Shown in pieces: positions 1,833 through 50,117 of a DNA stretch of 64,000 bases. Below the pieces are notes generated by a model. It searched no databases. It was not told the DNA's origin and saw only the letters and a list, made by a program, of their open reading frames with translations. The DNA is from a virus (lineage: Duplodnaviria; Caudoviricetes). Both the position numbers and the translations under genes were made by a program. The stretch is from the IMG/VR virus record IMGVR_UViG_3300032116_000009, one strand, 5' to 3'. The stretch's first letter is position 1, and each line of letters opens with the position of its first letter.

Positions 1833-3103
1833 CTCTGTTCCAACCAGTTCATAATTGCAAGTGCTGCTTTGTTAGCGTTAGGTGAGGCACATACGAGAGT
1901 GTAAATATCACTAATTGTTCCAATACCACTTCTACCAACTTGTAGTTGTGCTTTGTCATCAATGACTATCTGACTTCCACCACCACCAACAACAAATCCA
2001 CTTAAAAGAACTCTTCCACCAGTGAAAGAAGTTGCAGTTGTATCATATTGAGTAATTGCATCTGGGTTTGCGTGATCAGTAAATGCTGCACCGACTAGAG
2101 TTGGGTTCTCAACTAGTCTCCAGAAGATGTTAGTATTATCATTAGTAGATACTTGAAGTGACCTTGGAATTACAACACCACTCAACATATTTGATTTAAG
2201 ACGAATACTAAGAACTGGATAATAAGTATTCGCAACAGACATCGTAGTTCCAGTAAGAGCATTGCCCTGACTGACAAGAGTTCCAAGTTTTTCTGGTTCT
2301 CCTTCCTGAATAAGAGAATTAGAACCCTGATAAAGGTAATGAGTTCCTGCAACACCAGTTACATTTTCAATTTCACAACGAATTGGTAGGAATGGAGTAG
2401 AACACCAAACATATGGATTGGTATTTGAGTTATCAAATGTATGACTATGAATTGTTTCATTCTTCATTAACCAATTAAACTGAACAATTCCTGCACCATA
2501 CCATTCATAGTTAATTGAAATCATTTGTTGTTTTGTTGGATCTGCAACAACACCTGTATATCCATCACCACCAAACTTTTCACCATTCCAATTATCTCTG
2601 GTTACTCTAGTTTCTGTAGTAATTCCAGATGTACTACTGCGAATTACATATGAATATGTTCCACCATCGTCCTCAAAGTATGCACCGTTATAGTCATCAA
2701 ACAGTCCAAATCTTCTGCGAATTCCTACCTTTGGTTCTTCAAGACGAATAGCAAATGCAAGAGTTGCACCCCTACCAGGAATGTATCTCATTACAGTCCT
2801 AGTTTGACGAATGACTTTACTCCCTGCAGTAGATCCAACTTGCATCACTACATTACTGGATGATGCGTTGTGATATGCAGTTCCAACTCCAACTATTCTT
2901 TCATCCCATACATCACTCTCTTTTCCGTACTGGAAAGTATTAAAGAAGACTGTTTGGTACGGAGCAACTTTAAGTCTGTTGTTATTAGAAAACTGAGGTC
3001 TCCAGTCTGTCTGGTTTCCCCAGTGATCTGCAATATTAAAAACTTCAAAGAGACTTCTCTCTTGATTTAGATAGTCCTGTTCATTCTTATTCCACTGAGC
3101 CAT
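1829..3103 (-). CDS. Conserved phage hypothetical protein, beta-rich, probable virion component
   Basis: 424-aa ORF, G/S/T/V-rich with beta-strand patterns, in a late operon. Confidence 0.6.
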   Translation of the reverse strand: MAQWNKNEQDYLNQERSLFEVFNIADHWGNQTDWRPQFSNNNRLKVAPYQTVFFNTFQYGKESDVWDERIVGVGTAYHNASSSNVVMQVGSTAGSKVIRQTRTVMRYIPGRGATLAFAIRLEEPKVGIRRRFGLFDDYNGAYFEDDGGTYSYVIRSSTSGITTETRVTRDNWNGEKFGGDGYTGVVADPTKQQMISINYEWYGAGIVQFNWLMKNETIHSHTFDNSNTNPYVWCSTPFLPIRCEIENVTGVAGTHYLYQGSNSLIQEGEPEKLGTLVSQGNALTGTTMSVANTYYPVLSIRLKSNMLSGVVIPRSLQVSTNDNTNIFWRLVENPTLVGAAFTDHANPDAITQYDTTATSFTGGRVLLSGFVVGGGGSQIVIDDKAQLQVGRSGIGTISDIYTLVCASPNANKAALAIMNWLEQR

Positions 3104-3420
3104 TATTCACTCCAAGATAGTCTTTCTGGTTGATACCTCTGAGTATTCTTAATTTTTAAAGAACTTTGAGATTGTGATGGATAAATGTTATGAACGATTG
3201 CTCCAGGATACTCACTCTGAAGTTGTTCAGCGAGAGCGTTCTTATCCATCATAGAACCCTCTACTTCCAAACGATACATCTTTCCTTCCCAAACTACATC
3301 AGCAAAGAAAGACTCTCCTACTGGTTCTGATTGTGGTTCGGAACCATTGATATAAAGGTTTCCGTTGAAGTCACCAGCAATGTTAATTGCTTCCGATAAA
3401 AATTGATTGAATGATTTCAT
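3103..3420 (-). CDS. Hypothetical protein with MKSFNQFLSE-A leader (putative head-internal protein)
   Basis: 105-aa ORF with TAATG coupling; the N-terminal motif is shared with other ORFs in the window. Confidence 0.75.
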   Translation of the reverse strand: MKSFNQFLSEAINIAGDFNGNLYINGSEPQSEPVGESFFADVVWEGKMYRLEVEGSMMDKNALAEQLQSEYPGAIVHNIYPSQSQSSLKIKNTQRYQPERLSWSE

Positions 3421-5756
3421 TAGTTACAGTTCCAACGACGAAGGGCTTTGTTGATTCTTGAATCTGGATCTCGTGCAGTTTCTGCACTAGTTAGTCTCTT
3501 TTTCATACCTTCCATTCTGCGGCAAAAGGACTTACGGCGTTCAGCCCTTTTGCCCGCAGGCTTTTTTTCAGTTACTGCAGTCTGAAGTTTTGAACCTGGA
3601 TTTTCACGACGATAAGCATCTACAGCTTTCTGACTGAGACCATCGGTTTTATCTTTACGATTAACTGACTGCCAATCTTCCTTAACTCCAATCATCACAA
3701 TCGGATTTCTAACTCCAGCGGATCTCATCTTAGTTTTTGTTAGATTTACTTTAGTTGGTAAATCTCTCATATCCTTTTTTGGAGTTTCATTCTCTTTTTC
3801 GTCACATCCACAACCTTCACTCATGTTTGGATTGATTTGAATTTTATTTTTCTTTTTAGAAACATCAATTACTTTTTTTTTATCCGTTGCAGAGGAAAAA
3901 TCTTCTACTTCAAATAAAAAATCTTTTCTCCAATCATGGAGTTCTTCTTTTGTGACTTCTTTTTTATTTTGTTTGTTTAGTTCTCTTTTTGTCTTTGCAA
4001 TTTTAAATGCAGCTGCGCCCAATTGAACTCCACCTTTAACCATCTTACCAATATTACTTGCAACTTTAGTTGCAGCTGCACCTTCGGTATCTTTAGTAGA
4101 TATTTTTTGATATTCTGGTCTATCTACAGATTTTTTGGATGATTCAATTTTTTGTTCTAGTTCTCTTTTTCTATTTTTTTCTGCTTCCTTTTTCTTTTTT
4201 TCTAGAGCCTCAGCTTTTTTCTGAGCTCTCATTTTATCTTCCCTTTTAGTTCTTTCTTTTCTAGCTTCAGCTTTAGAAGCGGCCTTTTCTCTTTCAGTTT
4301 GTTGAAGAATTTTTGCAGCTTTTACTCTCGTGGCACCCCTAACTCTCTCAGCTCTTTCTACCCCAGTAACTTTTCGTTTACCTTTTTCTGGTTCTTCCTC
4401 AGTTTCTTTAGGCTTTTTTGATTTTTTATTGTCATCGTCTCCACGAATATCCGCAAGAAGATCGTCAAGTTTACCTTCACTTAATGGAGAAAATTCTAGG
4501 ATCATTCTATCAACTAAAGATAACTCTTCTTTAGTCTCCTCCTTTTTTTCAGGGAGTCCTGCATGTTTTGTCTTTGCAAAATCTCTTGCAGATTTCTTAG
4601 TCATTCCCTCTGCAGCCTTTGCAACCTCTGGAGAAGCAGGAGTTTCACCTTTCTTAGCAGCATAAACCATACCCATGAATCTCTGTTGAGCTCTACTTAG
4701 AGACTTCTCTGTAAGATATCCCTCACCCATTGCCTTCTGTTTACGAAGTTTCTTAGGATTCTTTGTCTTGTCTGCAGAGTAGTTATTATCATCCTCATTA
4801 TCAGGATCTACAGCACTACGATGTCTTGTGCGTCTTTCCTCATCATCCATGTTTGCACGACTTCTCTTTGCTTCATCTGGAGAATACTTTCTACCACTGT
4901 TGTACCATTCCTTACCTACATGACCTCTCTTCTCAGCATCAGCAGAAGCTTCTCTACGCTTATTCTTCTGACGATTTGCTTTGAAATCTTTCATGGTCAT
5001 ACCTTCTTCGATTTCAGTCTCTTCTTTTTTCACTCCTCTTCTCTCTTCATGTTCAGCTCTACGAGCCCTTTGTTGACCTCCACCTAATGCAAGGGCACCA
5101 CTTGGATTGTCATATCTTGCAAGTCTTGCTGCAGATCTCTTATGTTCTGGAAGTTTCTTATCTGCCTTACCTTCATCAACAAGGTCGCCTTCGGGTTCAT
5201 AAGATTGACGAAGTTGTTTCATTGCATCGTTAAGTGCATTGTTACGTTTTTGCATTCCATATGCAGCACCAGCAATACCTGTTCCAGGATTTTTAATCTG
5301 TTTTCCTTTATTTGCAGCATCTACTCCAGATTTCGCAGCATCTTTAGCTCTCTTAATTGCAGCACCAGCAGCAAGAGCTCCACCAAGAGCAAGTCCGCCA
5401 GCAATTAGTGGTGCAATCTCATCAATCTGTTCTACTTCTTCTTTCGCTTGAATAATCTTACTTCTTACCTTTCTGCGATTTAAAAGATATTTGTCAGTCT
5501 TATCATGATCTCCATCATTATCAATATCCTTATCTTCTTGACCAACAGCATCCAGTTGTTTCGCTTCTTCTACTTTCTTCTTCTTGTCTGCAGCAATGGC
5601 AGCTCCAACAGTAGCTCTCCTCTTCTTAAGATAACTATCAGAACTATCGGAATCACCATCATTATCCACATCGTCATCTTCATGACCAACTGGATCCAGT
5701 TTTTTAGCTGTTTTAGCTTCTGCAACAATACGTGAAAATTTTTCCCAACTAGACAT
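3420..5756 (-). CDS. Modular, highly charged late protein (putative head-internal polyprotein)
   Basis: 778-aa ORF with repeated DxDNDGD modules, a TKNPKKLRKQKAMGE module and a C-terminal SFCRRM...RWNCN module; late promoter upstream. Confidence 0.8.
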   Translation of the reverse strand: MSSWEKFSRIVAEAKTAKKLDPVGHEDDDVDNDGDSDSSDSYLKKRRATVGAAIAADKKKKVEEAKQLDAVGQEDKDIDNDGDHDKTDKYLLNRRKVRSKIIQAKEEVEQIDEIAPLIAGGLALGGALAAGAAIKRAKDAAKSGVDAANKGKQIKNPGTGIAGAAYGMQKRNNALNDAMKQLRQSYEPEGDLVDEGKADKKLPEHKRSAARLARYDNPSGALALGGGQQRARRAEHEERRGVKKEETEIEEGMTMKDFKANRQKNKRREASADAEKRGHVGKEWYNSGRKYSPDEAKRSRANMDDEERRTRHRSAVDPDNEDDNNYSADKTKNPKKLRKQKAMGEGYLTEKSLSRAQQRFMGMVYAAKKGETPASPEVAKAAEGMTKKSARDFAKTKHAGLPEKKEETKEELSLVDRMILEFSPLSEGKLDDLLADIRGDDDNKKSKKPKETEEEPEKGKRKVTGVERAERVRGATRVKAAKILQQTEREKAASKAEARKERTKREDKMRAQKKAEALEKKKKEAEKNRKRELEQKIESSKKSVDRPEYQKISTKDTEGAAATKVASNIGKMVKGGVQLGAAAFKIAKTKRELNKQNKKEVTKEELHDWRKDFLFEVEDFSSATDKKKVIDVSKKKNKIQINPNMSEGCGCDEKENETPKKDMRDLPTKVNLTKTKMRSAGVRNPIVMIGVKEDWQSVNRKDKTDGLSQKAVDAYRRENPGSKLQTAVTEKKPAGKRAERRKSFCRRMEGMKKRLTSAETARDPDSRINKALRRWNCN

Positions 5757-5781: not shown

Positions 5782-7044
5782 TTATTTATTCTTTTTGCCT
5801 CTACGAAACTTATCGTAAATAGATGCAATCTTAACACCGGTATAACTTTTAACTTCTTGTCCTGGAGTTAATGATTGGAGATACTCCCTATATTCATCTG
5901 TACCGATTTCATGGGGGTGTTCAGTGAGATCTTTTAACCAAGACTTGAACATAACTCCGTCTTCAGTTACACAAATGACATAGTTAGTTCCTCTACGAAT
6001 TACTTCACCTCTAAGGCCTGTATTCATATTTTCAACGATAGATCCAACTTCATAGATGTGATCAACTAGGTATGCATCTCTAAGACCCTCTTCATCAAAT
6101 TTAGGTGCAACTTCCCAAATTTCCGTCTGTTCATTAATTCCCATAGATCTACGAAGAACATTAAAAAGTTCCATCTTTTCAGTGTTACCCAGAGTATCAG
6201 GAACACCTTTCGCAAACTTTTTAAAGTCACCTTCTGCTGCAGCAAGACGAAGTTTTGAAGCAGACATTCCTGTTACATCATCAGAGTCTGGATCTCTTTC
6301 TCCTGCAGAAACTACTTCAAGTTGATCATAATTATAAAGTTCCCCATTATACTTATGACTCAAACCTTGAAACTCTCCGAGTCGGTCTTGGCCCACCATG
6401 ATGATCATATTATTATGACCTTCTTGATTTGCACCCGTCAATACATTAAAGATTGTTTTTGCTCCCTTGTCGTCAATAATACTATCTGCATAATCTGGGA
6501 ACATCTGACGCATATATGAAATCTTCATTTGTGGAGTCAAAGGATTTTTCTTAGCATCATGAGAACGAGAAGGATAAACTCTCAATTCATATCCTCTCTT
6601 ATCAGCTTCCTTTGCAGCACGATCTAAAAGTTTTTGATGACCAATTGTTGGTGGATTAAATCTACCAAACACCACAACAACTCCTGGAGTTTCTGGAACT
6701 GGTACTTCTGCAGGTTGTTCTTCTGTCGCTGGTGCAGATTGTTGTTCTGGTGAAACTTGTTGAGAATTTTGTGTCTGTTGTGGGGAGGGTTCTTGAACAA
6801 CAGACTGAGTTGCAGTCTGTTTAGATGAGATTGATTTAGTACTTGGTTGAGATGGGGAATCTTTTTGTCCTGGAATATTATCACTACCAAAGAACTTTAA
6901 TTTACCAGCCACAGTTTTTGCAACAAACTCACCATTTTTGTCATACCATCCGCCATGACCATCTCCGGTCAAACCAAGTCTCTTGGCTTCTGTAGATGCA
7001 GAAGTTTCTCTAGCTTCAGTGAGGAACTGCGTGAAATTCTTCAT
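5782..7044 (-). CDS. Cytidyltransferase-like (HIGH-superfamily nucleotidyltransferase) phage protein
   Basis: Motif VVFGRFNPPTIGHQKLL (HIGH-like), plus VGQDR and MSASKLR (KMSKS-like); N-terminal MKNFTQFLTE-A leader. Confidence 0.85.
   Translation of the reverse strand: MKNFTQFLTEARETSASTEAKRLGLTGDGHGGWYDKNGEFVAKTVAGKLKFFGSDNIPGQKDSPSQPSTKSISSKQTATQSVVQEPSPQQTQNSQQVSPEQQSAPATEEQPAEVPVPETPGVVVVFGRFNPPTIGHQKLLDRAAKEADKRGYELRVYPSRSHDAKKNPLTPQMKISYMRQMFPDYADSIIDDKGAKTIFNVLTGANQEGHNNMIIMVGQDRLGEFQGLSHKYNGELYNYDQLEVVSAGERDPDSDDVTGMSASKLRLAAAEGDFKKFAKGVPDTLGNTEKMELFNVLRRSMGINEQTEIWEVAPKFDEEGLRDAYLVDHIYEVGSIVENMNTGLRGEVIRRGTNYVICVTEDGVMFKSWLKDLTEHPHEIGTDEYREYLQSLTPGQEVKSYTGVKIASIYDKFRRGKKNK
5783..5790 (-). 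promoter_or_regulatory. Late promoter AATAAATA
   Basis: tatttatt on the plus strand, 27 nt upstream of the ATG at 5756. Confidence 0.65.
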
Positions 7045-15290: not shown

Positions 15291-15479
15291 TTAGGCGCCA
15301 TCACCATCTGCGGAATTACCACTCCCACCACCGCCTGGATTCTTAGGCATAGCTTTTCCTGCAGGGACTACTTTTGATTTTCCAGTCAACGGATTGTAGA
15401 TTTTATGCCTAACGGCAGCGGGGTAGGAAATCTGTTTAATGTTTCCGACTTGTTCTAAGAACTGCTTAAAGGATTTCAT
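15291..15479 (-). CDS. Small protein with MKSFKQFLE leader
   Basis: 62-aa ORF overlapping the last 14 nt of hsp20; same leader motif as other ORFs. Confidence 0.65.
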   Translation of the reverse strand: MKSFKQFLEQVGNIKQISYPAAVRHKIYNPLTGKSKVVPAGKAMPKNPGGGGSGNSADGDGA

Positions 15480-25279: not shown

Positions 25280-26566
25280 TCAATCTCTAGATGAATCATA
25301 TTTTTCTCTCGCTTTTGATTCTTTCTTTTCCTTTTCGGTAAATCCATGTTTCATAACTCTTTCGTTATGACGAGTAGCCTTTCTTCTCTGTTCTTCCTCT
25401 GGGGATTCTTTTTCACCCTTTACTTTTGGTTCTTGTCTTGAACCAGGAAAGTTCTTAGAGTGTTCTTTCTCAGCCTTATGTTGAAGGTTAGTAATACCTG
25501 CTTTTAGTCTGGTCTCTTTACCTTTTTTCGCAGCCATAAAGGAAGATTTTGCTTTTTCTGCACGTTCCGCACGAGCCGAATCTCCACGATCAGAACCTTC
25601 TGTATCCATCCTACGTGCTTCAATAATTTCTGCAAACCAAGATTCACTCATATTAAGAATGATTTTATCTGCAGACTCTTCATTTGAAGCATATCCTTCC
25701 TCAAGTAAATGCGAAAGAACTACTTGATAAGTGTTGTAACTTTCATCAATTTCACCCATTGCTTTTTGCTTACGGAGTTTCTTAGGATTCTTGGTTACTG
25801 TACCAGGACCTGGCTTGTGTCCACCAGCAGTGTACTCAACAGCACTATCTCTCGCATAATCTCTGCTATCTTGGTCAAGTTTACCCCTACCAGATTTACC
25901 CAACATACCAGACCATCTTGGTTTAGTAGATTTCTTACCACGATTTCCTGCATCAGGACCATTATCAATTCTCTGAGTATGCTTCTCAATTGCCTTTACT
26001 TTCTTAGTCTTCTCACCTTTCTGAGAATACTCACTTGCGGGTTTCTCACGTCTTGCGATAGCAAGTTTACCCATTGCTTGTCTTGCTTTAGGTGTCTTAC
26101 CGTAAGAACCTTCTGCTTCATAGATATCAAGCATGTCATCCCAAGTGTACTCGGATAGATCATAACCTTCTTCTACAAGAGACTCCACCCAAAGTTCAAA
26201 ATCTTCTTTAGCAAACTCACCCATTGCTTTTTGCTTACGGAGTTTCTTAGGATTCTTAGTAATTCCACCAGGACCCTCTGAAGGATAATCATGACCGCGA
26301 GGAGAACCATGTGCTGCACCTGCTCTTGCTTCCTCTCTATCAGAAGCAGTCATTCCTTTTCTTGGAGAAGTCTCAGGCCTTCTTTCTGCAGGATTAGTTC
26401 TTCTGAGCATTTTCTTGAGGAAAGGCTTTCTCTTTGCAGTCATCTTGGTTTTTGATGCTGCAGCATATGCCTTTGGAGTTTCACCATAAGAACCTTCTGC
26501 TTCATCAAGTTGTTGATTAACTTGGTTATAAGCTTCTGTCAGATTTTGCAGGTCGTTAAAGTCCAT
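25280..26566 (-). CDS. Modular basic/acidic late protein with duplicated module (putative head-internal polyprotein)
   Basis: Likely start MDFNDLQNLTE-A at 26566 after a CTAAATA promoter; two AEGSYG...TKNPKKLRKQKAMGE modules. Confidence 0.8.
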   Translation of the reverse strand: MDFNDLQNLTEAYNQVNQQLDEAEGSYGETPKAYAAASKTKMTAKRKPFLKKMLRRTNPAERRPETSPRKGMTASDREEARAGAAHGSPRGHDYPSEGPGGITKNPKKLRKQKAMGEFAKEDFELWVESLVEEGYDLSEYTWDDMLDIYEAEGSYGKTPKARQAMGKLAIARREKPASEYSQKGEKTKKVKAIEKHTQRIDNGPDAGNRGKKSTKPRWSGMLGKSGRGKLDQDSRDYARDSAVEYTAGGHKPGPGTVTKNPKKLRKQKAMGEIDESYNTYQVVLSHLLEEGYASNEESADKIILNMSESWFAEIIEARRMDTEGSDRGDSARAERAEKAKSSFMAAKKGKETRLKAGITNLQHKAEKEHSKNFPGSRQEPKVKGEKESPEEEQRRKATRHNERVMKHGFTEKEKKESKAREKYDSSRD

Positions 26567-26588
26567 TTTTTTACAAATACTTTGTAAG

Positions 26589-26595
26589 TATTTAG
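26589..26595 (-). promoter_or_regulatory. Late promoter variant CTAAATA
   Basis: tatttag directly after the terminator and 23 nt before the ATG at 26566. Confidence 0.6.
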
Positions 26596-26596
26596 T

Positions 26597-26618
26597 AAAA
26601 AAGAGGGGTTTCCCCCTC
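26597..26618 (-). terminator. Rho-independent terminator
   Basis: GAGGGG-GAAA-CCCCUC-UUUUUU overlapping the vWA gene stop. Confidence 0.85.
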
Positions 26619-28827
26619 AAGCAACAAGATCAATAAACTCACCAAGAATTTTTTTATTCATCTTCTTACTCTTTAGAGACTTTGCGAATGCAGATTTAAT
26701 TTGGGATTTTGTTGCACATTCATGAACATCAAACTCAGAATCTTGAGAAAGTGCCGAACCAGAAAGGCCAAAGTAAGAATGATAACCAGAATTTTTAATT
26801 GAAAAAGATTTATTCTTTTTCCAATCATTCATGATTTTTACATATTCTTTATTGTCTTGAGCATAACCAGAACTATATTCATAATTATCGTAATACTTAC
26901 GAATGAAAGAATTAGCTTCACGATTTTCAAGAACCCGCATACCAATAAAATTCACAGAAGGAAAACGATCACGAAGGTTCTGAAGAAGAGTGTCCGTAAA
27001 TTGATGAAATTCAAATGGTACTTTATAAGTACAGCCAGTTTTACGATCACGAATGAAAGTAGGGTGACTATTAAGAGAGTTCAATCCAATATAAGGTTCT
27101 CCACCATCAACAGAACGATTTTTAAACTCTTTGTGAAACTTCATATAACAAGCTTCACCATCGGTTAAAACTACACATTGAACTTTCTGGAGTTTATTTT
27201 CCTTTTGAAACTTAGGCAAAATTTGATGCATTGCAATCAAAGCTTCATTCAAAGGAGTTCCAGAAAGAAGTAGTCTAGTCGGAGTATTATACATTGGAGC
27301 ATCATTATAAGAATACTTAAATTCTTTAGCAATGCGATAAATGTTAATCATTTGTTCTTCCAGAACACGATTATTTACTTTACTAGTAAAAAGATTCATC
27401 ATGGAAAATGTTTCATCTACACAGATGAGTCCAGATTTCTTTTGATAGTGTGGTTCCATCCTCATAAAGTTTCCCTTTTCGTCATATGTACTACGACGCC
27501 ACTCATTAGTAAATGCATAAACTTCGAAGGGAATAGAAACCTTCTTACAGAACCAAATCAAATTATAAAGTTGTTTGATTGTATCCTGCATCACATTTGA
27601 CATTGAGCCAGACCAGTCCAGGACAAACACTAGGCCATGATTTTTTCCGTTTGCAAGAGTGGTTACCTTACGGAACAAATCTTCATTATACTTATAAGTA
27701 TGAAGTTTAGAACAATCTAGAACACCAGTACGAGCAGTAGTGGAACGAGCGTATGAATCTGCAGCTTTCCGACATTCAAACTCTTTCACCAAGTAGTTAA
27801 CTTCTTTCTGAGCAGAACGTTTGAACTCTCGAAAATCTTTATCAATTTTTCCAAACAAAAATTCCTTAGCATTAGATTGACTCTTACTAAGAGATTCTAC
27901 TGATTTGTTCCACCAATCATTAATTTCATCATGAACTTCAGAATTAGATGCAATGACAGTTTCTAGATTAAGTTTGGGAAGTTCCACATAAACATTTTCA
28001 TACGAAGAGCTGTTGACAAGATCTCGAATAGATTCTTCCAAATTATCTGCAGTATGGACTTTAGGATCAGAAGTCTCTCCACCCTGATTTGAAGTTCCCT
28101 TAGAAGGTTGATCAATATCATCCCCCGATTCACCATCAGAAGGAGTCTGGCCACCTTCACCAGAGGTTTCAAGTGTATTCTGATCCGAATATTCTTCTTG
28201 GGGTTCTGAGGAAGGTTCTGAACTGTTTCCAGAATTTTGTTCCACTGTATCAATAGAATCAATCTTCATTTGTTGATCCTGTTCTTTCTTGCAGTACTCA
28301 TAAAGTTTTACCGCAGCTTGAATCGCTTCATCAAAAGTTTCTGCATCACCAATCATAGTGATGATTTCTTGTTCTTCCTGATTAAACTGTATATCAATGT
28401 AGTTACCAATCTTAAAGTAAAGATTGGCACGATCTGCAAGATTAAACTTAGAAATATCTTCTTCCTTTACTTGGAAAAAATCATCCTCGTGAAGTTCACG
28501 ATAACCCGCATAAAAACACTTATTGAGACCCGCATACCTACGTTTCATCAACTTTTCAATACGAGCATCTTCCGTAACATTCACAAATTGTTGTGGGATG
28601 GAAAACTTTTCACTCCAGTCCTCGTTAGGAGTATAAAGTGCATGACCCACTTCATGACCAACAAGCATATCGTAGACAACGTTAGAAGCCTTCTCCCACA
28701 TCGGGAGAATCAGGACACGAGTATCCACATTGAAAGACGCAGTGGGAACGTGTTTGTGTTCCACCACCAGATCTTCAGTAGCGAGGAGACGGGCAAGATG
28801 ACCTTTGACTTCGTGATTAACAGACAT
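26617..28827 (-). CDS. vWA-domain protein with N-terminal HExxH metallopeptidase-like region (CobT-like partner of MoxR ATPase)
   Basis: GHEVGHALYT, NVTEDARIE, MIDAS DWSGSM, SGTPLNEA and LTDGE motifs; likely start MSVNHE at 28827. Confidence 0.88.
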   Translation of the reverse strand: MSVNHEVKGHLARLLATEDLVVEHKHVPTASFNVDTRVLILPMWEKASNVVYDMLVGHEVGHALYTPNEDWSEKFSIPQQFVNVTEDARIEKLMKRRYAGLNKCFYAGYRELHEDDFFQVKEEDISKFNLADRANLYFKIGNYIDIQFNQEEQEIITMIGDAETFDEAIQAAVKLYEYCKKEQDQQMKIDSIDTVEQNSGNSSEPSSEPQEEYSDQNTLETSGEGGQTPSDGESGDDIDQPSKGTSNQGGETSDPKVHTADNLEESIRDLVNSSSYENVYVELPKLNLETVIASNSEVHDEINDWWNKSVESLSKSQSNAKEFLFGKIDKDFREFKRSAQKEVNYLVKEFECRKAADSYARSTTARTGVLDCSKLHTYKYNEDLFRKVTTLANGKNHGLVFVLDWSGSMSNVMQDTIKQLYNLIWFCKKVSIPFEVYAFTNEWRRSTYDEKGNFMRMEPHYQKKSGLICVDETFSMMNLFTSKVNNRVLEEQMINIYRIAKEFKYSYNDAPMYNTPTRLLLSGTPLNEALIAMHQILPKFQKENKLQKVQCVVLTDGEACYMKFHKEFKNRSVDGGEPYIGLNSLNSHPTFIRDRKTGCTYKVPFEFHQFTDTLLQNLRDRFPSVNFIGMRVLENREANSFIRKYYDNYEYSSGYAQDNKEYVKIMNDWKKNKSFSIKNSGYHSYFGLSGSALSQDSEFDVHECATKSQIKSAFAKSLKSKKMNKKILGEFIDLVA

Positions 28828-36846: not shown

Positions 36847-38022
36847 TCACTTTTTAGCAACGTTGGAAAGCGCACGCAAATAAGCGTCCATAGAAGGTGA
36901 ATGAGTCACCTCTTGGAAATTCGCTTCTTCTGATAGATTTTCCGTCTCGTTTGCTGGAATACCAGCATTTCTTGGGAAATAAGACTCCCTAAGAGTTACC
37001 AGTTTCTGGTAATAGTCATCTTCACTCTCAAACTCAACACTTTCTACGAGGCTTGCAAGCTTATCCTTTTGGGAAAGAGCGAGACCCTCGGAAACCTGAT
37101 TGAAAATGCTGTCAGCAGCAGATTCTGCAAGTTTCTTGTTAAGAGCAATATTTCTTTGAATTTGCTCGTTGAGTTTTGTCTCCATTTCATCAAGTTTTTC
37201 TACCATGCTCTCTAGAACATCATATTTCTCTTCAGGCATTGATACATAATGTGCTTCAAAAAGTCCCTTCATACCATTGATGAAGGACTCGGTGATCTCA
37301 GTTTTGAGACCACTTTCAACTGCGAGAGCATTTTCTTCTAACCATTCGGATGCAACATACTCTAGGTATGAATCAACACGCTCGGTTAGTTCTAGTTTAA
37401 TTTCTTCAACCTCTTCTGCAAGAGCAGTAGCATAGTGCTCTTCCATTACTGATTGAATTTCTTTTGTTTTGGCGTGAAGGGCAGCTTCAAATACAAGCTT
37501 TGCCTTTTCTTTAAACTCTTCGGAGAGTTCTTCTTCGCCAGATAGGAGAGCATTTACATCCTCTTCAATGATAGAATCTACATCTTCTTCTACCACTTCT
37601 TCAGCACCCTCTTCAGATTCTTCTGTTGCTTCTGTTTCTTCTTCAGTCGCTTCAGTTTCTTCTTCTTCAACTAGATCCTCATCTTCTTCTACTTCTTCCT
37701 TCATTCCACCACCTTGACCTGGTGTTGAAACAGGAGTTGCAGAAGTTTGAGGAGCTTCAGCTGCAGCAGCTTTAGCATTGACAACATCTTTAACTTGCTT
37801 CAGGGTTGCACCTGGAGTTTTTAAAGTATTTGAGTTGTCATCTGGACGACTGTTTTCTGGGGTTGGACCGCCAAGATCTTCCCAAGCACCAGTTTGTCCA
37901 GGAGTTGCAACAGGGGTTGCACTCTTGTGTGGTGCTTCTGCTGCAGCTGCATTAGCGTTTACAGCAGTTTTGGATTGTGAAGTGCCGGTTTCCATTTCTT
38001 GTAAATTCTTACCACGGGACAT
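36847..38022 (-). CDS. gp22: Prohead core scaffold protein (T4 gp22)
   Basis: Acidic coiled coil; LSEEFKEKA..FEAA and YLEYVASEW motifs; between gp21 and gp23. Confidence 0.93.
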   Translation of the reverse strand: MSRGKNLQEMETGTSQSKTAVNANAAAAEAPHKSATPVATPGQTGAWEDLGGPTPENSRPDDNSNTLKTPGATLKQVKDVVNAKAAAAEAPQTSATPVSTPGQGGGMKEEVEEDEDLVEEEETEATEEETEATEESEEGAEEVVEEDVDSIIEEDVNALLSGEEELSEEFKEKAKLVFEAALHAKTKEIQSVMEEHYATALAEEVEEIKLELTERVDSYLEYVASEWLEENALAVESGLKTEITESFINGMKGLFEAHYVSMPEEKYDVLESMVEKLDEMETKLNEQIQRNIALNKKLAESAADSIFNQVSEGLALSQKDKLASLVESVEFESEDDYYQKLVTLRESYFPRNAGIPANETENLSEEANFQEVTHSPSMDAYLRALSNVAKK

Positions 38023-38067: not shown

Positions 38068-38718
38068 TTATAGATTTGATAAAAACTCATTAAACAGATT
38101 TAACTTCTGTTCATCAAGTCTTCTTTGATCAACAAGAGTATTAATTCTCTTTTGAGTTTTTGAAACGAGTTGTTCACGAAGGATTCCACCTTCCCAAACC
38201 CACTCTTTTCCTTCCATGATTCCAGAAACAAAAGCATCTGGAGCAGAAGGATCAGCGACGATATCAGCTGCAGTAGCAAGCATAAAATCTTCACCAACTA
38301 CTTTGTGACCTTCACTAGTTGTTTGGAGTGAACCAACACCACGAGAAGAAACGCCAAGCATTACACCTTCATCAAGAAGTGAGGATGCAATTTTTCCCAT
38401 TGGAGTATTCAAAATTTGTGCTTTACCGATAAAATTATTTCCCTCTTGAGTGAGAGAAGTGATTTTATGTGAAACACGATCAAGGTTTACAGTAGGACCA
38501 TCGGGGTGTCCGAGTTCTCCTAAAGCGCGACCTTTAGATACAAACTGTTCATTATAACGATCAACCTCACGAGAGAGAACAGTGATGGGATACATTCTCC
38601 CATTACGGTTTTTAATTTCTCCTTGGAGAAATACTCCTTCAATATAAAGTTTTTTATTATCACCTTTTCCTTCAGTGATAATTTTTACATTCGTTACTTC
38701 TTCGGTAATTAGTTTCAT
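38068..38718 (-). CDS. gp21: Prohead protease (T4 gp21)
   Basis: NRNGRMYP, LGELGHP, GVSSRG and DPSAPDA motifs. Confidence 0.97.
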   Translation of the reverse strand: MKLITEEVTNVKIITEGKGDNKKLYIEGVFLQGEIKNRNGRMYPITVLSREVDRYNEQFVSKGRALGELGHPDGPTVNLDRVSHKITSLTQEGNNFIGKAQILNTPMGKIASSLLDEGVMLGVSSRGVGSLQTTSEGHKVVGEDFMLATAADIVADPSAPDAFVSGIMEGKEWVWEGGILREQLVSKTQKRINTLVDQRRLDEQKLNLFNEFLSNL

Positions 38719-44196: not shown

Positions 44197-44427
44197 TTAC
44201 CAGTCAGGATATTCCCATTTATCAAAAACTCTATTAGTCATTCTACTGGAGACTATTCTTTGAATAGTGCAATTTTTACACTCATATGAATATGCTGATG
44301 CTATGCCACCTCTACCTTTTCTCGTAAGATAAAAACCATCAATAAGATCTTTTACTTTTCCACACTTTCTACATTTTCTCTCAGTAAGAAATAAATGTTC
44401 TAATTCAAATTGATCATCAAAATCCAT
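44197..44427 (-). CDS. Small CxxC...CxxC zinc-finger protein
   Basis: RKCRKC...YECKNC; located between gp17 and gp18. Confidence 0.75.
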   Translation of the reverse strand: MDFDDQFELEHLFLTERKCRKCGKVKDLIDGFYLTRKGRGGIASAYSYECKNCTIQRIVSSRMTNRVFDKWEYPDW

Positions 44428-46076
44428 TATCTATAATCCCACATATATTGCATGTCTCCATATTCATCAACATGCCAACGATCGCCATCTTCATCAACAA
44501 AGCTTTCTCCACTATCTAACCCATCAGAAATGAATCCGAAAGGGGCCATATCTTGTTCAATTTGATTTTTTTGTTCTTCATAAATCCTTTTACGAACATC
44601 ATTGTCCGTCATTTCTTTGAAGTATGGTTGCATGATTAACCATGCAAAAATAACTAGACACATTGCAAGATCATCATTACAACCATCTTCAGCCTCAAAA
44701 GAATTAGCTTTCTGAATGAAAGTTGTGAGTTCACTGATCACTTCATAGTCTTTAATGACTAATTTATCTTCTTCTATTAAAGTCTTAAGATTCATGCATC
44801 CAATCTTTTTGACATTTTTGGACATCTTCACGCCCATTTGAGATTTCTTACCAGAAAACCCTTGACCCACTAATTGACCAGCACGACCCCTCATCGTACA
44901 CATAAGGACGTTATCATATTCCAAATCCATATGAAGAATCTGTCCAACTTGTTCACCAACGTCATTAACTTCAACTAAAACATATGCTTTATTGTAAGCG
45001 ACTGCAAGATCTTTGATAATACTCGGAAATAACATTGGTTTAATCTGGTTATTTCTGTATTTTGCTACAAGTCTATATGGAAAACTTGTTGTATCACAAA
45101 TTGTAAATGCTGAATAATCTTTCTCTACGCCCCTAGCAACATCAACCGTTAAAACATAATTATGATCCTTTTGAGGTTCTTCATAAATGTCAAGGCCTGC
45201 ATTTCTTTTTATGGGATCATCGTAAACTAAAGATCTGAGTTTTGCTGCAGATATGAGAGTATCGACAGATCCTAAAAATTCGCACTCAAACTCAACTTTA
45301 AATTGTTGTTCTGACGTGTTTGCAATAGTTTGTGCTTTCCACTTATCGTCTCTTCCTGGAACTTCGGACCAATGAACATCTGTGGGAACGTATTCATTTT
45401 TACCGCGTTCGGCATCATGCCACATACGGTAAAAATGATTCATACCTTTTGGGGTAGAAACAATTAGGACTTTTGTGCTTTGTCCAGACGATATAGTAGG
45501 ATAAACAGAGGCAAAGAATTCATCAGCAATGTGATTCGGGATGAAAGCGAATTCGTCCAAAAAGATGATATTATACGATCCGCCTCGGACAGCAGATGCA
45601 GAAGTAGATGCGGCGATAATTTTTGAGCCATTCTCCAGTTCTAGAGATCGTTTGTTCCATGATACGATACCTTGTTGCATCCATTTTGGCAGTTTTTCAT
45701 ATGCAAATTGTAATCTACTAAGTAGATCTTGTGCTGTGGATGCCTTGTTGGCTAGAATAGCTATGTTAACATTATCATTAAACACTGCATAATGTAACAA
45801 ATATGAAACACAAGTTGTAGATTTACCTGTCTGACGAGGCATTCTACAAATGTTAAATCTATTTTCGTGAAAGTTTGTAATTAACTTCTCTTGGAATGGA
45901 TACATCCTAAAAGGTATTTCACCATAGTCTAGTGAAACAATCTTGATATAATTTTTAGCAAAATACACAGGATCGTTCTTGCACTTTACAAACTCAAGAA
46001 CTTGTTCCTGTGTAAATTCTACGGCTACATTAGCCTTTTTAAGGTTGGGATTACCAAGATATACCTGATCACTCAT
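44427..46076 (-). CDS. gp17: Terminase large subunit (T4 gp17)
   Basis: PRQTGKST, LDEFAF, STPKG, DVARG and DDLAMC motifs. Confidence 0.98.
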   Translation of the reverse strand: MSDQVYLGNPNLKKANVAVEFTQEQVLEFVKCKNDPVYFAKNYIKIVSLDYGEIPFRMYPFQEKLITNFHENRFNICRMPRQTGKSTTCVSYLLHYAVFNDNVNIAILANKASTAQDLLSRLQFAYEKLPKWMQQGIVSWNKRSLELENGSKIIAASTSASAVRGGSYNIIFLDEFAFIPNHIADEFFASVYPTISSGQSTKVLIVSTPKGMNHFYRMWHDAERGKNEYVPTDVHWSEVPGRDDKWKAQTIANTSEQQFKVEFECEFLGSVDTLISAAKLRSLVYDDPIKRNAGLDIYEEPQKDHNYVLTVDVARGVEKDYSAFTICDTTSFPYRLVAKYRNNQIKPMLFPSIIKDLAVAYNKAYVLVEVNDVGEQVGQILHMDLEYDNVLMCTMRGRAGQLVGQGFSGKKSQMGVKMSKNVKKIGCMNLKTLIEEDKLVIKDYEVISELTTFIQKANSFEAEDGCNDDLAMCLVIFAWLIMQPYFKEMTDNDVRKRIYEEQKNQIEQDMAPFGFISDGLDSGESFVDEDGDRWHVDEYGDMQYMWDYR

Positions 46077-46085
46077 AAGACAAAA

Positions 46086-46262
46086 TTACAATTTCGCTAA
46101 ACTTGCTACGACTTCTTGTTGTTTGAGATATAGTTTAAAATAAGCTTTGGCAAATTCTATTGCTTCATCTCTATCTAACTTATCTATAACCCTCGATTGT
46201 TGTTCATAAATTAACATCTTATTAATATCTTCAAGTACTATTTCAGAGGGATTTACGTTCAT
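46086..46262 (-). CDS. NblA-like phycobilisome degradation adaptor candidate (58 aa), below the ORF-track cutoff
   Basis: Hand translation MNVNPSEIVLEDINKMLIYEQQSRVIDKLDRDEAIEFAKAYFKLYLKQQEVVASLAKL. The ORF fills the gap exactly; its size and two-helix pattern fit NblA as recalled. Confidence 0.55.
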   Translation of the reverse strand: MNVNPSEIVLEDINKMLIYEQQSRVIDKLDRDEAIEFAKAYFKLYLKQQEVVASLAKL

Positions 46263-46263
46263 T

Positions 46264-48189
46264 TCAATTACCTTGAATAACTACAATTGGTTTTGTTGGG
46301 TCGGTAGGACTTGGATACCACTGCATTATAACTGCGCCTGGATAAAACTTTTCAATTTCCTTTTTCACTTCATCTTTTGATGGCCTCTTCATACTTGAGA
46401 AGAAAAGTTGAAGATTTGTCATTGGTCTACCTCTCCATGAAAAAAGTATAGTATAAACATTACCACTAGATTGTATCCGTTGATAATCTTCGTTTGTCAA
46501 TTGTCCTGGTTGAATAACAGAGTCTGCAAGAGGAAGAGAGGGGCCACTTAGTTTTCTAAGTGCGGCTTCTTTCTCTCCTTTGTTAGTAGTTCCAGTTGCA
46601 AGATTGCGAATTTTTGCTTGTCTTTGTGCATGTCTGTGTCCAGAACCGATTTCAAAACTCACATTTTCATTTGCTGGGTGAACTTTTGCAATACTATATG
46701 GTTTTTCTGGAGCTAATGAAGAAGGTAGTGAGAACATTTTCCAATAACCTTCGCCGTATTTGCATTCGGAAGATGTTTCATTTTTTTGGCACTTTGGGCA
46801 ATATCTTACTCCATTCATTTCTTCTGGAATAAATTCTTCTTTTTTGGTTTTATTGCCCCAGTTTGCAGCACCAACTTTACGACACTTAACTAACGCACCA
46901 GATGCATATGCAGAAGGCCAAACCTTATAACGAGATTTTACCTTTGAATAACATGCGTCCTTTTCTTCACCTAATTTTGCAGCCCTTCTTTTTGCTTTAC
47001 TTCCTTTTCCTCTATCTCTGTTTTTACCTAAAGTGTCTGCCCAATAATCTTTATTCTTTCTATTCATTTCACCACCAACAGATCTTTCTTCTGGAGGGGC
47101 ACTTCTTCCACCACGACTTCTCATAGAATCAAATCTTTTATCCAATTCCTCAGTGGCAACCATCTTAGCCTTACCCTTTCTATCTGGGTTTGGATCTTCC
47201 TGGTTCTTACGACGGAATGCTCTCTCCTCTTCTTTATCGGAGAGTTCTGCTTTCATTTTGCTGGAACCACACTTTGGTTTTGTGGTTTGTCCTGGTTGTT
47301 TTGCACAGGGTTTCCCTGCGTATTTACCACCCAGTTGAACCCAACCAGGGGTGCCATCAGAAGCGCGACTCTTAGTAAACCAGTCACGCAAAGAACTATC
47401 ACCACTCTTGTTGGCTTCATCAATGGAATTCTCCTTCACACAATTAGGAACTATCTTCTTTCCTTTCTTTTTCATTCCGAGTTGTTTGTAACCATCCCAA
47501 CATTTTTCGTTCACAGGCTCAGTAAAACTTTTGAATTTATAATCAGACCCTTTAACAATATCAATAATAGTTGCAAAAAGATTTCCGTCTGCATCTAGAA
47601 TCTCTAGATGTTCATTCATTCTTTTTTTACGACCTTGGCAGTGAGCTTTCTGGGAAAATCCTTTTGGATTATCACAATCAATTGACTTTTTATATTTTTC
47701 CGACCAATCTTCCTTTACCTTCTCCATTTTTCTAAGTTTGGAGTAGTAATTTGGAATTTCGTCTAAATGTTGCAATGCAATATCCATTGCTTGATCATTA
47801 TCTGTAGTATGTTCCTTTTCAACTTTCATCCCCATCTCAAGTTGTTTTTCGATAACTGATGGAGATACTTTATGCTTTTTTGCGATTTCTTCTATGGATT
47901 TGTGTCCTTTGAACCCTTCTTTAACATCAGATTTTCTTTCTGTATCATCTTCTCCATGAGTAAGATGATCAGCTACTGTATCAAGATACTCTGCAGCTTT
48001 AGTGATTTTGGATTGTACCCACGCTTCTAGATCTCCTTCACCTTTGAGTTTGGTCATCAATCTTGTAATTGCTGCCTGTGCAGTCTTAAGTTCTCCACGA
48101 GCCATTGAGAACTCAAAGTCTTCTCCAAGAGGTGCAATTGTTTGGAGGTCCGAGAGAATAGACCACTCTTTAAAGGTAAGTTTTTCCAT
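46264..48189 (-). CDS. Modular late protein of short Cys-pair/basic modules (putative head-internal polyprotein; includes a DUF5661-like EHT..IALQHLDE module)
   Basis: Likely start MEKLTFKEW at 48189; about 11 discrete modules, each beginning after xxE. Confidence 0.8.
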   Translation of the reverse strand: MEKLTFKEWSILSDLQTIAPLGEDFEFSMARGELKTAQAAITRLMTKLKGEGDLEAWVQSKITKAAEYLDTVADHLTHGEDDTERKSDVKEGFKGHKSIEEIAKKHKVSPSVIEKQLEMGMKVEKEHTTDNDQAMDIALQHLDEIPNYYSKLRKMEKVKEDWSEKYKKSIDCDNPKGFSQKAHCQGRKKRMNEHLEILDADGNLFATIIDIVKGSDYKFKSFTEPVNEKCWDGYKQLGMKKKGKKIVPNCVKENSIDEANKSGDSSLRDWFTKSRASDGTPGWVQLGGKYAGKPCAKQPGQTTKPKCGSSKMKAELSDKEEERAFRRKNQEDPNPDRKGKAKMVATEELDKRFDSMRSRGGRSAPPEERSVGGEMNRKNKDYWADTLGKNRDRGKGSKAKRRAAKLGEEKDACYSKVKSRYKVWPSAYASGALVKCRKVGAANWGNKTKKEEFIPEEMNGVRYCPKCQKNETSSECKYGEGYWKMFSLPSSLAPEKPYSIAKVHPANENVSFEIGSGHRHAQRQAKIRNLATGTTNKGEKEAALRKLSGPSLPLADSVIQPGQLTNEDYQRIQSSGNVYTILFSWRGRPMTNLQLFFSSMKRPSKDEVKKEIEKFYPGAVIMQWYPSPTDPTKPIVVIQGN

Positions 48190-48190
48190 A

Positions 48191-48613
48191 TTACTTTTGA
48201 TTAGATAAGTTTTTCTTTCCAAGTGAAATCACTTGATCTTTTGTCATACCAGTTGCTTTCATCTTTGCTGCACCACCACCAGCAGCAAAATCATCCATTG
48301 GTTTTTTGACTGGTGTAGACTGCTGTTGAGAAGGTCTGTTTATTTTGTTAGAAAAATCTTGTTGTGCCTTTGCTGCTTTTGCCTTTTGTCCCGCATAAAG
48401 AACATCACTCACACTACTTCCTTTTTTTAGTGCTGCTTGTCCACCACCTGCTTTAAGGGCTGCATATCCACCTCTGTCAGAAAATTGCTTTGATCCAATC
48501 TGATTTGAAGCATAGGCATTTCTTTGAGCACTTGTAGTGAAACGACTATTTGGATTCATTGCCATTTCACTAATAGAATAAGCCTCGGCACAAAAATTTC
48601 GGAATGTCTTCAT
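48191..48613 (-). CDS. Gly/Ala/Lys-rich protein with MKTFRNFCAE-A leader
   Basis: 140-aa ORF downstream of a CTAAATA late promoter. Confidence 0.75.
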   Translation of the reverse strand: MKTFRNFCAEAYSISEMAMNPNSRFTTSAQRNAYASNQIGSKQFSDRGGYAALKAGGGQAALKKGSSVSDVLYAGQKAKAAKAQQDFSNKINRPSQQQSTPVKKPMDDFAAGGGAAKMKATGMTKDQVISLGKKNLSNQK

Positions 48614-48636: not shown

Positions 48637-49068
48637 TTATTTAGATGTATCTTGATTCATGGAACTCTTCAAGAACTTTTGAAGTTCTGCAGTAGAACCA
48701 AAGAATACTGCATTGTTAGTAACACTTGTCGGTGTTGCTCCTTTTTCTTCCTTATTAATATCTTTCATTTTCTTTTGAAGATCTAAAAGTTTATCTGTAA
48801 CATCTCCAACATTCTTGATTAATTGTCCAGCAACTTCATATGCTCTAGGTGAATCTGATTCTTGGGCTAGTTCTAGAATTCCATTAATCGCTTCTTGACC
48901 CTTCTCGATAATTGAGTAAAGTTGACCCCTAGAATATTCATAATCCTTTTGTAATTGATCAAGATTTTCTGTAGGTTTTTGAATATCAGTTACTTCTGTT
49001 TTAACTATTTCGGATTTAATCGTTGTTGGTTCTATATCTAAAGCTTTGTCAATATCATCAAAGTTCAT
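48637..49068 (-). CDS. gp16: Terminase small subunit (T4 gp16)
   Basis: DYEYSRGQL...PRAYEVAGQL...GSTAELQK motifs. Confidence 0.93.
   Translation of the reverse strand: MNFDDIDKALDIEPTTIKSEIVKTEVTDIQKPTENLDQLQKDYEYSRGQLYSIIEKGQEAINGILELAQESDSPRAYEVAGQLIKNVGDVTDKLLDLQKKMKDINKEEKGATPTSVTNNAVFFGSTAELQKFLKSSMNQDTSK
48638..48644 (-). promoter_or_regulatory. Late promoter variant CTAAATA
   Basis: Overlaps the gp16 stop codon. Confidence 0.55.
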
Positions 49069-50117
49069 ACATCAGTTCCTTTAGTAGTACTATAAACTTT
49101 ACCATCACCATAATCATAACGATATTCACTAAATCCAAAATCATCGTCAAGATCAATTAAATCATCATCTACACTATTAATAACATTGACTGCAGTTCCA
49201 GAAGCATGTGAAGAAGCTATCGTACCATCTTGACTTCTATTAACCGTTAATGTATTTCCACTTATCTTACGAATGTACATAGATTCGTCATCAATTTGAA
49301 TATATGATTTTTCAACTAAAGACGTAGCATCAGAAACTGTAAATTCTGTAATATCTGTAGAAACATCCTCTGAAATTACCGTTATTTCATCATTGTTATA
49401 ATCTCTAAGAGCCCTAGGTTCTACTACATATCTTAATTGTCTTGATGAATTGTTTCTATTGGTATTGGAATAGTAATCTACTTGAACTTGTTTAATTAGA
49501 GCATCATTACCATTTCCAGTAGGGCCAAATAGATATGTTTTAGCTGTGAAGTCAAGAGTATAAATTAAAATTCTTCTTGTTGTAAAATCTCCTTCATATT
49601 GATCATCTATTCCAATTCTTTCCAAAATCATTGGAATATCTCTTTTTTCACCAATACTTGAGGCTAAATCTACTGTTAGATTTAAGTGTGGTTGGAAATA
49701 GGGCAATATTTGTTCTACTATTTGTAAAGCATCTTCATTCAATTTAGCCATTATTGAAAGTCTAATGTTTACATTATATGGAACTGGCAAAAAAGATTTT
49801 GTTATTTCATTATTATTATCAGAATCCAATGCTTTAAATGTCTGCATTGTAGATGACTTTCTGGATGGATCATAAGAGATACCAGTCATCTCAAATGACA
49901 TTCTCGGTAGAGTTATAGCAACTCTTCTTTTTAAATCTGGTACTTGTTCAATTCTAGCTAAAAATTTCTGTATGGGTCCATAAGCTATAGGGACCGTAAT
50001 GATACTAAAATCATCTCCAGCACTATCTTTATGTTTAATTTTTATATCATTAAATAACGTACCAAAAGCTACTATGGTCTTTCTCAATATTTCGTGATAA
50101 AAATAATTTGATATCAT
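49065..50117 (-). CDS. gp15: Tail sheath stabiliser/terminator (T4 gp15) with an extra C-proximal domain
   Basis: FGTLFN, VPIAYGP, LPRMSFE and QILPYFQP motifs. Confidence 0.93.
   Translation of the reverse strand: MISNYFYHEILRKTIVAFGTLFNDIKIKHKDSAGDDFSIITVPIAYGPIQKFLARIEQVPDLKRRVAITLPRMSFEMTGISYDPSRKSSTMQTFKALDSDNNNEITKSFLPVPYNVNIRLSIMAKLNEDALQIVEQILPYFQPHLNLTVDLASSIGEKRDIPMILERIGIDDQYEGDFTTRRILIYTLDFTAKTYLFGPTGNGNDALIKQVQVDYYSNTNRNNSSRQLRYVVEPRALRDYNNDEITVISEDVSTDITEFTVSDATSLVEKSYIQIDDESMYIRKISGNTLTVNRSQDGTIASSHASGTAVNVINSVDDDLIDLDDDFGFSEYRYDYGDGKVYSTTKGTDV

Follow-up and report, generated by a model that had tools for sequence, protein, structure and literature searches.

A variable chain of Cys-paired mini-domains between the terminase genes of a T4-like cyanophage: a candidate precursor of head-internal peptides

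In cyanomyoviruses the interval between gp16 and gp17, the genes for the small and the large terminase, is a hyperplastic region (PMC3037559). Here we analyse a stretch of 64,000 nucleotides of virus DNA (Duplodnaviria; Caudoviricetes; IMG/VR record IMGVR_UViG_3300032116_000009), hereafter the window, whose closest cultured relative is Synechococcus phage S-SCSM2R (43% of the stretch aligned, at ~78% nucleotide identity). In the window this interval of a T4-like cyanomyovirus holds a gene for a probable virion protein of modular build, a member of the T4-GC119 / phrog_727 family, located within a minus-strand run of virion genes. The encoded protein is rich in Lys (13.4%) and contains 11 Cys. 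We present evidence that it is a chain of shuffled mini-domains joined at hydrophobic-x-Glu motifs, and that it may be a capsid-targeted precursor cut by the gp21 prohead protease (probability about 0.6). The gene and its modules, named M0 to M11 in order, are as follows.

46264-48189, minus strand: target gene, 641 aa plus stop codon
48121-48189, minus strand: M0, residues 1-23, leader similar to a capsid targeting sequence (MEKLTFKEW...), with L-G-E as its last three residues
47917-48120, minus strand: M1, residues 24-91, acidic helical hairpin (isoelectric point (pI) 4.9; AlphaFold2 helices 25-47 and 56-76), ending in V-K-E
47710-47916, minus strand: M2, residues 92-160, DUF5661 helical domain (predicted local distance difference test score (pLDDT) 85-90), ending in V-K-E
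47611-47709, minus strand: M3, residues 161-193, basic Cys-pair module (C172, C184), ending in M-N-E
47506-47610, minus strand: M4, residues 194-228, small acidic beta module, ending in V-N-E
47416-47505, minus strand: M5, residues 229-258, CWxGY...PNC Cys-pair beta-hairpin (C230, C250), followed by V-K-E and a spacer NSIDE
47149-47415, minus strand: M6, residues 259-347, basic core module NKSGDSSLRDWF... with C295 and C307, the core of phrog_727
46966-47148, minus strand: M7, residues 348-408, low-complexity basic linker (pI 10.5; pLDDT <40), ending in L-G-E
46822-46965, minus strand: M8, residues 409-456, near-invariant basic Cys-pair module DACY...SAYASGALVKCRK (C413, C436)
46666-46821, minus strand: M9, residues 457-508, CxxC-x8-C knuckle (pLDDT ~89; Cys invariant in 120/120)
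46489-46665, minus strand: M10, residues 509-567, basic helical module
46267-46488, minus strand: M11, residues 568-641, C-terminal alpha/beta domain (pLDDT 87-90), almost always the last module

The earliest in-frame start of this open reading frame (ORF) is a TTG at 48222. It was set aside in favour of the ATG at 48189, because more than 30 homologues begin with M[DE]KLTFKEW, as the protein does when read from that ATG. The ATG lies 1 nt past the stop of an upstream ORF of 140 aa.

Only DUF5661 (PF18905) passed the Pfam cut-off (52.9 bits over residues 100-157; threshold 27), and Pfam scans of the single modules added nothing beyond a sub-threshold match of M8 to DUF5872 (PF19197; 18.1 bits, under the cut-off of 27.5, E = 0.004; Atlas lead score 0.82). 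A previous reading of this DNA, made from the sequence only, had stated that some modules are known DUFs; this is only partly right, as DUF5661 alone clears the threshold. In the PHROG scan, phrog_727 matched at residues 254-470 (E = 1e-82), and several further families of unknown function each spanned one segment of the protein.

The family is large and belongs to marine cyanophages. More than 8000 candidate clusters at 90% identity were found in each length class searched, and 9378 representatives (50% identity) matched at E <= 1e-3 among 1.8 billion proteins; the 377 cultured phage records with family matches are nearly all Synechococcus or Prochlorococcus myoviruses. In the literature searched the family is annotated as hypothetical or structural protein only and there is no account of its modularity, leader or junction motif; DUF5661 and DUF6321 are not mentioned there, nor is anything said on the processing of cyanophage internal proteins. 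The target, T4-GC119 (Sullivan et al. 2010), Syn9 gp114, S-SM1 SSM1_115 and phrog_727 represent the same family, as judged by their position after gp16 and the common modules M5, M6 and M8. The synteny between gp16 and gp17 is kept in S-SCSM2R, S-RIM8, Syn9 and S-SM1, and the T4-GC119 gene of S-SM1 is 91% identical to the target in M8.

When profiles of the twelve segments of the target were run over 382 homologous proteins, 161 distinct module architectures were recovered. Module order is permuted (M6-M8-M5, M6-M5-M8, M6-M1-M11, M3-M6-M8-M5 and M2-M6-M8-M11 all occur), with a tendency for M0-M1 to stand first and M11 last and with M6-M8 as the commonest pair. M3 is found in part of the homologues only and M7 in few. 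The boundaries were located by two kinds of alignment. Large indels in a MAFFT alignment of 120 close homologues fall at query positions 89-95, 163, 185-196, 226, 257, 347-408 and 453, and phmmer local alignments to 267 proteins tend to end at 22/23, 88/89, 156-163, 193/194, 224, 254, 349, 407, 452-456, 510 and 565. These ends match the module boundaries listed by the sequence-only reading. At the joint between M8 and M9 the family consensus [LIM]-[QK]-E at 455-457 extends one residue past the proposed IPE456. A search for shorter homologues returned, among the 120 matches listed, mostly multi-module proteins or fragments of ~140-350 aa. Single modules, detected by tblastn, do exist as free proteins elsewhere: M8 as a 47-aa ORF (gp64) in Roseobacter phage CRP-7 and DUF5661 as a 70-aa ORF starting with MKDFKSFL... 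(gp177, 1962-2174 of the locus) in the T4-like Caulobacter phage Cr30. In Vibrio phage VPs20 (Chaseviridae), DUF5661 is embedded in the DUF2213 protein gp14 (2892-4160 of the locus), whose gene lies between a terminase gene and a DUF2184 gene, a position that suggests a head-morphogenesis gene.

An AlphaFold2 model built with a 100-sequence alignment agrees with this picture (predicted template modelling score (pTM) 0.27, mean pLDDT 61.5). Confident islands correspond to M1, M2, M5, M6, M9 and M11. Segments with pLDDT <50 are residues 14-23, 77-92, 188-195, 208-228, 256-268, 331-458, 502-518 and 548-556, and those from 14-23 through 502-518 match the proposed junction positions. As modelled, the chain does not fold as a single unit but is arranged as beads on a string. 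The string-of-beads architecture had been proposed in the sequence-only reading, and the architectures, the permuted order and the low pTM bear it out; folding as one unit was not seen, the model consisting of islands and disordered linkers. With the full model Foldseek gave no match in the PDB at E <= 0.001, and the wide structure search with VIA-align reached Z <= 5.6 at best, yielding no usable fold assignment. In that search the DUF5661 domain aligned to chain E of bacterial RNA polymerase structures (7ye1_E, 7f0r_E and others), which we take to be the omega subunit; with Z under the noise given for helical models, we treat the alignment as no more than a lead.

The Cys residues follow the module plan. 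All 11 are confined to five modules, as four pairs (172/184, 230/250, 295/307, 413/436) and the CxxC-x8-C triplet 464/467/476, so that the two or three Cys per module reported earlier are confirmed. Every Cys has a partner at most 25 residues away, which random placement achieves in 0.3% of trials (P = 0.003), and each is invariant wherever its module occurs in homologues. The modules had also been described as basic. This holds for M3, M5, M6, M7, M8, M10 and M11 with a pI of 9.4-10.5 and fails for M1 and M4, which are acidic. By analogy to the T4 internal proteins (IPs) a basic pI fits association with DNA; it would also be compatible with effector roles.

All eleven tripeptides of the xxE type that the sequence-only reading had listed on this minus-strand ORF are present, ending at residues 23, 91, 160, 193, 228, 258, 347, 408, 456, 508 and 567. 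In the target alone, however, the motif is at chance level: 12 [LIVM]xE were observed versus 9.3 +/- 2.7 in shuffled sequences, and [LI]xE is likewise not enriched. A single sequence therefore cannot support processing, and the homologues were examined. There, [LIVM]xE ends within 4 residues of 543 of the 1235 distinct homology-block boundaries (44%), versus 15% expected from the same proteins. Controls with another last residue are flat ([LIVM]xD, 10% versus 9%; [LIVM]xK, 16% versus 19%; [LIVM]xQ, 3% versus 4%). The nominal p of 1e-130 for this test is overstated, because the sequences are related and the boundaries not fully independent; the D, K and Q controls share the same relatedness yet stay flat.

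The enrichment is also seen where a module has changed its neighbour. At 742 distinct junctions with an upstream neighbour unlike that of the query, Glu occupies P1, position -1 of the boundary, in 59% (background 8.1%) and one of L, I, V or M occupies P3 in 50% (background 16.4%), both together in 47%. A Glu at -1 of module boundaries across homologues, as anticipated by the sequence-only reading, is thus what the statistics give. Upstream of module anchor motifs P3 and P1 are conserved and P2 and P4-P10 variable; at junctions P2, P4 and P5 are hydrophilic and P3 is specifically hydrophobic. The M5 module CWxGY is preceded by [LIV]-x-E-K; across its 150 distinct contexts, P3 is L, I or V in 95 and P1 is Glu in 107. 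For the W[ST]xKYK module P3 is Val in 25 and P1 Glu in all of 33 contexts, for the DFEF module P3 is L or I in 50 and P1 Glu in 56 of 64, and M3 is preceded by V-x-E in 33/33. Where homologues have modules that are absent from the query, these start directly past a VKE or an INE and have MRE, MKE, AKE, ILE, IKE or LNE as their last three residues, and extra modules are inserted immediately past the terminal VKE of M1. Each cassette therefore brings its own terminal hydrophobic-x-Glu. In the target itself seven or eight sites are canonical (23, 91, 160, 193, 228, 253/258, 408 and 455-457).

The N-termini suggest a link between these junctions and a known protease. In T4 the capsid targeting sequence (CTS) MKTYQEFIAE is removed by gp21 (10.1101/2021.01.19.427310; PMC9026906), which cuts after L/I-x-E (PMC9026906). 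Among the 382 homologues, 67 start with M[KR][TSNKE][FY]xx[FWY][LIVMC]xE, a pattern seen at just one of 4485 internal Met. Directly past the leader Glu, M6, M3, M2 or another module begins; MKTFSQFVIE followed by ANKSGDSSLRDWF, for example, parallels an internal ...IDE followed by ANKSGDSSLRDWF, and upstream of M6 there is either a 10-aa leader (27 cases) or an internal hydrophobic-x-E junction. Thus a module starts at the same residue whether it follows a T4-type cleavable leader or another module. Of five lines of evidence for protease-site junctions, we consider this sequence-level parallel with the leader the most telling. The target carries a 23-residue variant, MEKLTFKEWSILSDLQTIAPLGE (MEKLTFKEWSIL...LGE), as compared to the canonical 10-residue form, which four other ORFs of the window also have, and a bridging homologue that begins MKTFKEWSILANMETINLLE (MKTFKEWSIL...) links the two. 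At the L-G-E that ends the target leader (residues 21-23), P3 is L or I in 109/112 and P1 is E in 112/112 aligned homologues.

A side observation concerns Syn9 gp114 (1377-2708 of the locus) and S-RIM8 gp114 (2800-4575 of the locus), whose annotated starts seem too far upstream. In both, an internal Met yields a CTS-like MPPTYNEIF[NG]E, directly followed by the NKSGDSSLRDWF module.

The presumed processing enzyme is encoded in the window, as are other head proteins.

38068-38718, minus strand: gp21 prohead protease (phrog_207, E = 4.5e-82)
36847-38022, minus strand: gp22 scaffold, 391 aa
~35.4-41.0 kb: region of the portal, the gp21 protease, the gp22 scaffold and the gp23 capsid protein

Over the catalytic core this gp21 is 44% identical to that of T4, and the motifs GEL(N/G)HP and GVSSRG are kept. 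In T4 gp23 the site FLTE|A ends a 65-residue propeptide (PMC5694885). The gp23 of the window has FLGE|A, its predicted maturation site, near the same position, with the LGE tripeptide that also ends the target leader. Its gp22 has ~30 [LIVM]xE sites, mostly in the acidic helical half, a density as expected for a protein degraded by gp21.

Members of the family have been detected in virions. Purified S-SM1 particles gave 13 peptide counts for T4-GC119 (PMC3037559 Table S8), and purified S-CREM2 virions gave 7 unique peptides, with 13.1% coverage, for ORF160 (PMC10665884). The latter has the architecture M6-M5-M8 with the junctions LSE, VHE, LEE and ISE. In BFVD the S-SCSM1 homologue is labelled 'Virion protein'. 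Detection of homologues in virions shows only that some part of the protein stays. Virion association, on which the sequence-only reading depended, thus stands for S-SM1 and S-CREM2 and not for Syn9, as discussed below.

We find direct support for the modularity, the motif position, the leader, a protease gene in the window and the occurrence of homologues in virions, and the target is very probably a modular, leader-bearing, head-associated protein. From this we infer, with a probability of about 0.6, that it is a capsid-targeted polyprotein which gp21 cuts into peptides of 3-10 kDa; the cuts, the retention in the head and a function of the peptides are the conjectural steps. The gene would encode a precursor of head-internal cargo, which the 23-residue CTS variant would direct into the scaffolding core of the prohead. 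Activated gp21 would then cut after the Glu of hydrophobic-x-Glu motifs in disordered linkers, removing the leader and separating about ten mini-domains of 3-10 kDa, mostly basic (pI 9.4-10.5), five of them with a conserved Cys pair or triplet as putative closure. Like T4 internal proteins, the fragments may stay with the packaged DNA, and they would probably enter the host along with it. Such a cassette design would allow evolution to add, drop and reorder modules while the targeting and processing machinery remains untouched.

Several observations weigh against this polyprotein model. The leader of the target has 23 residues, not 10, with an Asp where T4 has the cleavage Glu, and the N-terminus of the S-SM1 homologue differs. 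Three of the eleven sites, ATE347, ANE508 and TNE567, are weaker, their P3 being Ala or Thr, and a predicted helix begins at residue 567. Val is the most frequent P3 residue in the family, whereas T4 favours Leu/Ile (PMC9026906). The linkers are Glu-rich generally, any xxE being found near 82% of the boundaries versus 48% expected. Syn9 gp114 was not detected in Syn9 virions (PMC3037559 Table S8). Finally, the published virion proteomes are bottom-up tryptic data without fragment sizes, and no cleavage product of the family is among them.

The Glu-rich linkers, the non-canonical junctions and the fact that no fragment was ever reported could also be read as signs of an intact, or N-terminally trimmed, multi-domain virion protein that forms a flexible chain in or on the capsid. 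The motifs would then be a by-product of Glu/Lys-rich linkers with a hydrophobic capping residue, and it speaks for such a chain that T4 internal proteins are cut just once (10.1101/2021.01.19.427310). Several observations speak against it: P3 is specifically hydrophobic, and P2, P4 and P5 are hydrophilic and variable; there is no enrichment of Asp, Lys or Gln at P1; and a module can begin at one and the same residue after either an internal junction or the terminal Glu of a leader. The free single-module ORFs CRP-7 gp64 and Cr30 gp177 argue in the same direction. We regard a chain that is uncut, or trimmed at its N-terminus only, as unlikely.

Multiple cutting need not lead to delivery. T4 core proteins are cut to many fragments which leave the capsid (PMC9026906; PMC5694885), and the target could be a prohead-core or assembly factor like T4 gp22, gp67 and gp68, whose pieces mostly exit before DNA packaging and whose modules serve assembly. 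The similar density of [LIVM]xE in the gp22 of the window, the scaffold-like acidic helical hairpin predicted for M1 and the missing Syn9 gp114 would agree with such a role. Mature virions of S-SM1 and S-CREM2, however, contain peptides of homologues, the modules are basic, predicted to be folded, putatively stabilised by Cys and conserved as free proteins elsewhere, and a highly variable gene in the hyperplastic region (PMC3037559) is atypical for an essential scaffold, which makes an expelled core factor distinctly improbable. A cytoplasmic multi-domain host-takeover protein outside the capsid, with chance or unrelated motifs, would suit an annotation at DUF level only and virion data that come from homologues and not from this phage, but is very hard to reconcile with homologues in the virions of two phages, T4-type leaders across the family and a gene inside the late structural block between gp16 and gp17.

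The capsid-targeted polyprotein thus remains our preferred reading, and it resembles several known systems without matching any of them. Like IPI, IPII, IPIII and Alt of T4, the family has members with a short N-terminal leader (MKT[YF]xx[FW][ILV]xE type) that ends in a gp21 motif; further parallels are a gp21 homologue encoded by the same phage, basic non-conserved cargo, a hyperplastic location and virion association of homologues. The T4 IPs are single proteins cut once, whereas the target chain has about ten further predicted junction sites and many predicted mini-domains of 3-10 kDa, and its leader has 23 residues. General Pfam and PHROG scans of the target, made without direct comparison to T4 IP sequences, returned no IP or Alt family. 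Like gp22, gp67 and gp68 of T4, which are cut by gp21 at many L/I-x-E sites in the prohead (PMC9026906), the target has many sites, in its case predicted ones. The fragments of these conserved assembly factors are mostly expelled; the target family is highly variable, has Cys-pair modules predicted to be folded and is found as homologues in mature virions. The inner-body and ejection proteins of phiKZ and SPN3US are likewise head-internal, with several x-x-Glu sites, a gp21-related protease and targeting propeptides (PMC5694885; PMC9026906), but they are large proteins with long propeptides and an S/A/G-x-E motif rather than strings of shuffled micro-domains. Polyvalent proteins (Iyer et al. 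2017, PMC5512222) are also multi-domain and shuffled, are encoded near packaging genes and have been proposed to be delivered with the DNA. They are defined by enzymatic or antirestriction domains (ART, MuF, DarB-like and others), whereas the whole-protein and single-module Pfam scans found no such domain in the target. Cyanophages are not mentioned in that paper (PMC5512222). As compared to the CTS/gp21 system of the T4 IPs and to the core and inner-body proteins of T4, phiKZ and SPN3US, the target would be one precursor made of shuffled micro-domains, each with its own predicted release site.

A further step is more speculative. In T4-like cyanophages the head protease might set free a combinatorial library of micro-proteins for injection, packaged in high copy and delivered with the DNA as host-takeover or anti-defence effectors; we consider this possible but doubtful. 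Any small module may then be pluggable into the CTS-led, Glu-punctuated cassette, and the injected modules may include the zinc- or disulfide-closed basic peptides, the DUF5661 domain and enzymes such as the leader-bearing cytidylyltransferase described below. If this were true, the at least 161 architectures would be a record of an arms race with picocyanobacterial defences. The preferred polyprotein reading by itself, if right, would mean that a family that is very abundant yet annotated just as hypothetical or structural gives marine cyanophage capsids a diverse load of small peptides, an undescribed layer of phage-host interaction in the ocean. An MKTF-type leader combined with hydrophobic-x-Glu junctions would then be a sequence rule by which the head cargo of T4-like phages could be read from genomes, and natural, compact targeting and release tags would be at hand for loading proteins into capsids.

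Further ORFs of the window are listed here, most of them with similar leaders or cassettes.

48191-48613, minus strand: 140-aa ORF upstream of the target, leader MKTFRNFCAE, a near-copy of the T4 CTS, with a further candidate site ISE16
3103-3420, minus strand: 105-aa ORF, phrog_1742, leader MKSFNQFLSE, body a stand-alone M11 relative (pairwise E = 1e-5)
5782-7044, minus strand: 420-aa cytidylyltransferase-like ORF, phrog_395, leader MKNFTQFLTE
15291-15479, minus strand: 62-aa ORF without family match, leader-like MKSFKQFLEQ with Gln at the position of the cleavage Glu
3420-5756, minus strand: 778-aa ORF, a second modular chain, leader MSSWEKFSRIVAE
25280-26620, minus strand: 446-aa ORF with two cassettes, each starting with AEGSYG after LDE or IYE and ending in KNPKKLRKQKAMGE
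1829-3103: 424-aa virion structural protein, phrog_1645

The 140-aa ORF, which had no PHROG or Pfam family match, is by its leader sequence a probable second head-cargo protein. The phrog_395 family has been detected in virions (S-SM1 T4-GC190 with 25 counts; S-CREM2 ORF154), and the 420-aa ORF is probably an enzyme packaged via the same leader. The 778-aa ORF contains two acidic DxDxDGD-type repeats, a weak DUF3008 match and a C-terminal DUF6321 module after VKE. It has PHROG families in common with the target and no close sequence likeness to it, as BLASTP between the two gave no significant similarity (best match 25 residues from VKEDW, E = 0.22). The link between target and 778-aa protein drawn in the sequence-only reading holds at this level. 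The protein of 428 aa named there as a third partner most likely corresponds to the 424-aa virion structural protein or to the 420-aa leader-bearing protein.

The genes around the target are the following.

49065-50117, minus strand: gp15
48637-49068, minus strand: gp16, small terminase
46086-46262, minus strand: 58-aa ORF between the target and gp17, phrog_27081 match
44427-46076, minus strand: gp17, large terminase
beyond gp17, minus strand: an endonuclease VII-like ORF, then gp18 (tail sheath)

The T4 late-promoter motif TATAAATA occurs 3 times in the window versus 5.2 expected, and not near the target. In S-SCSM2R the small ORF directly after the target homologue carries an NblA annotation. 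The 14-residue cassette end KNPKKLRKQKAMGE of the 446-aa ORF recurs in the 778-aa ORF.

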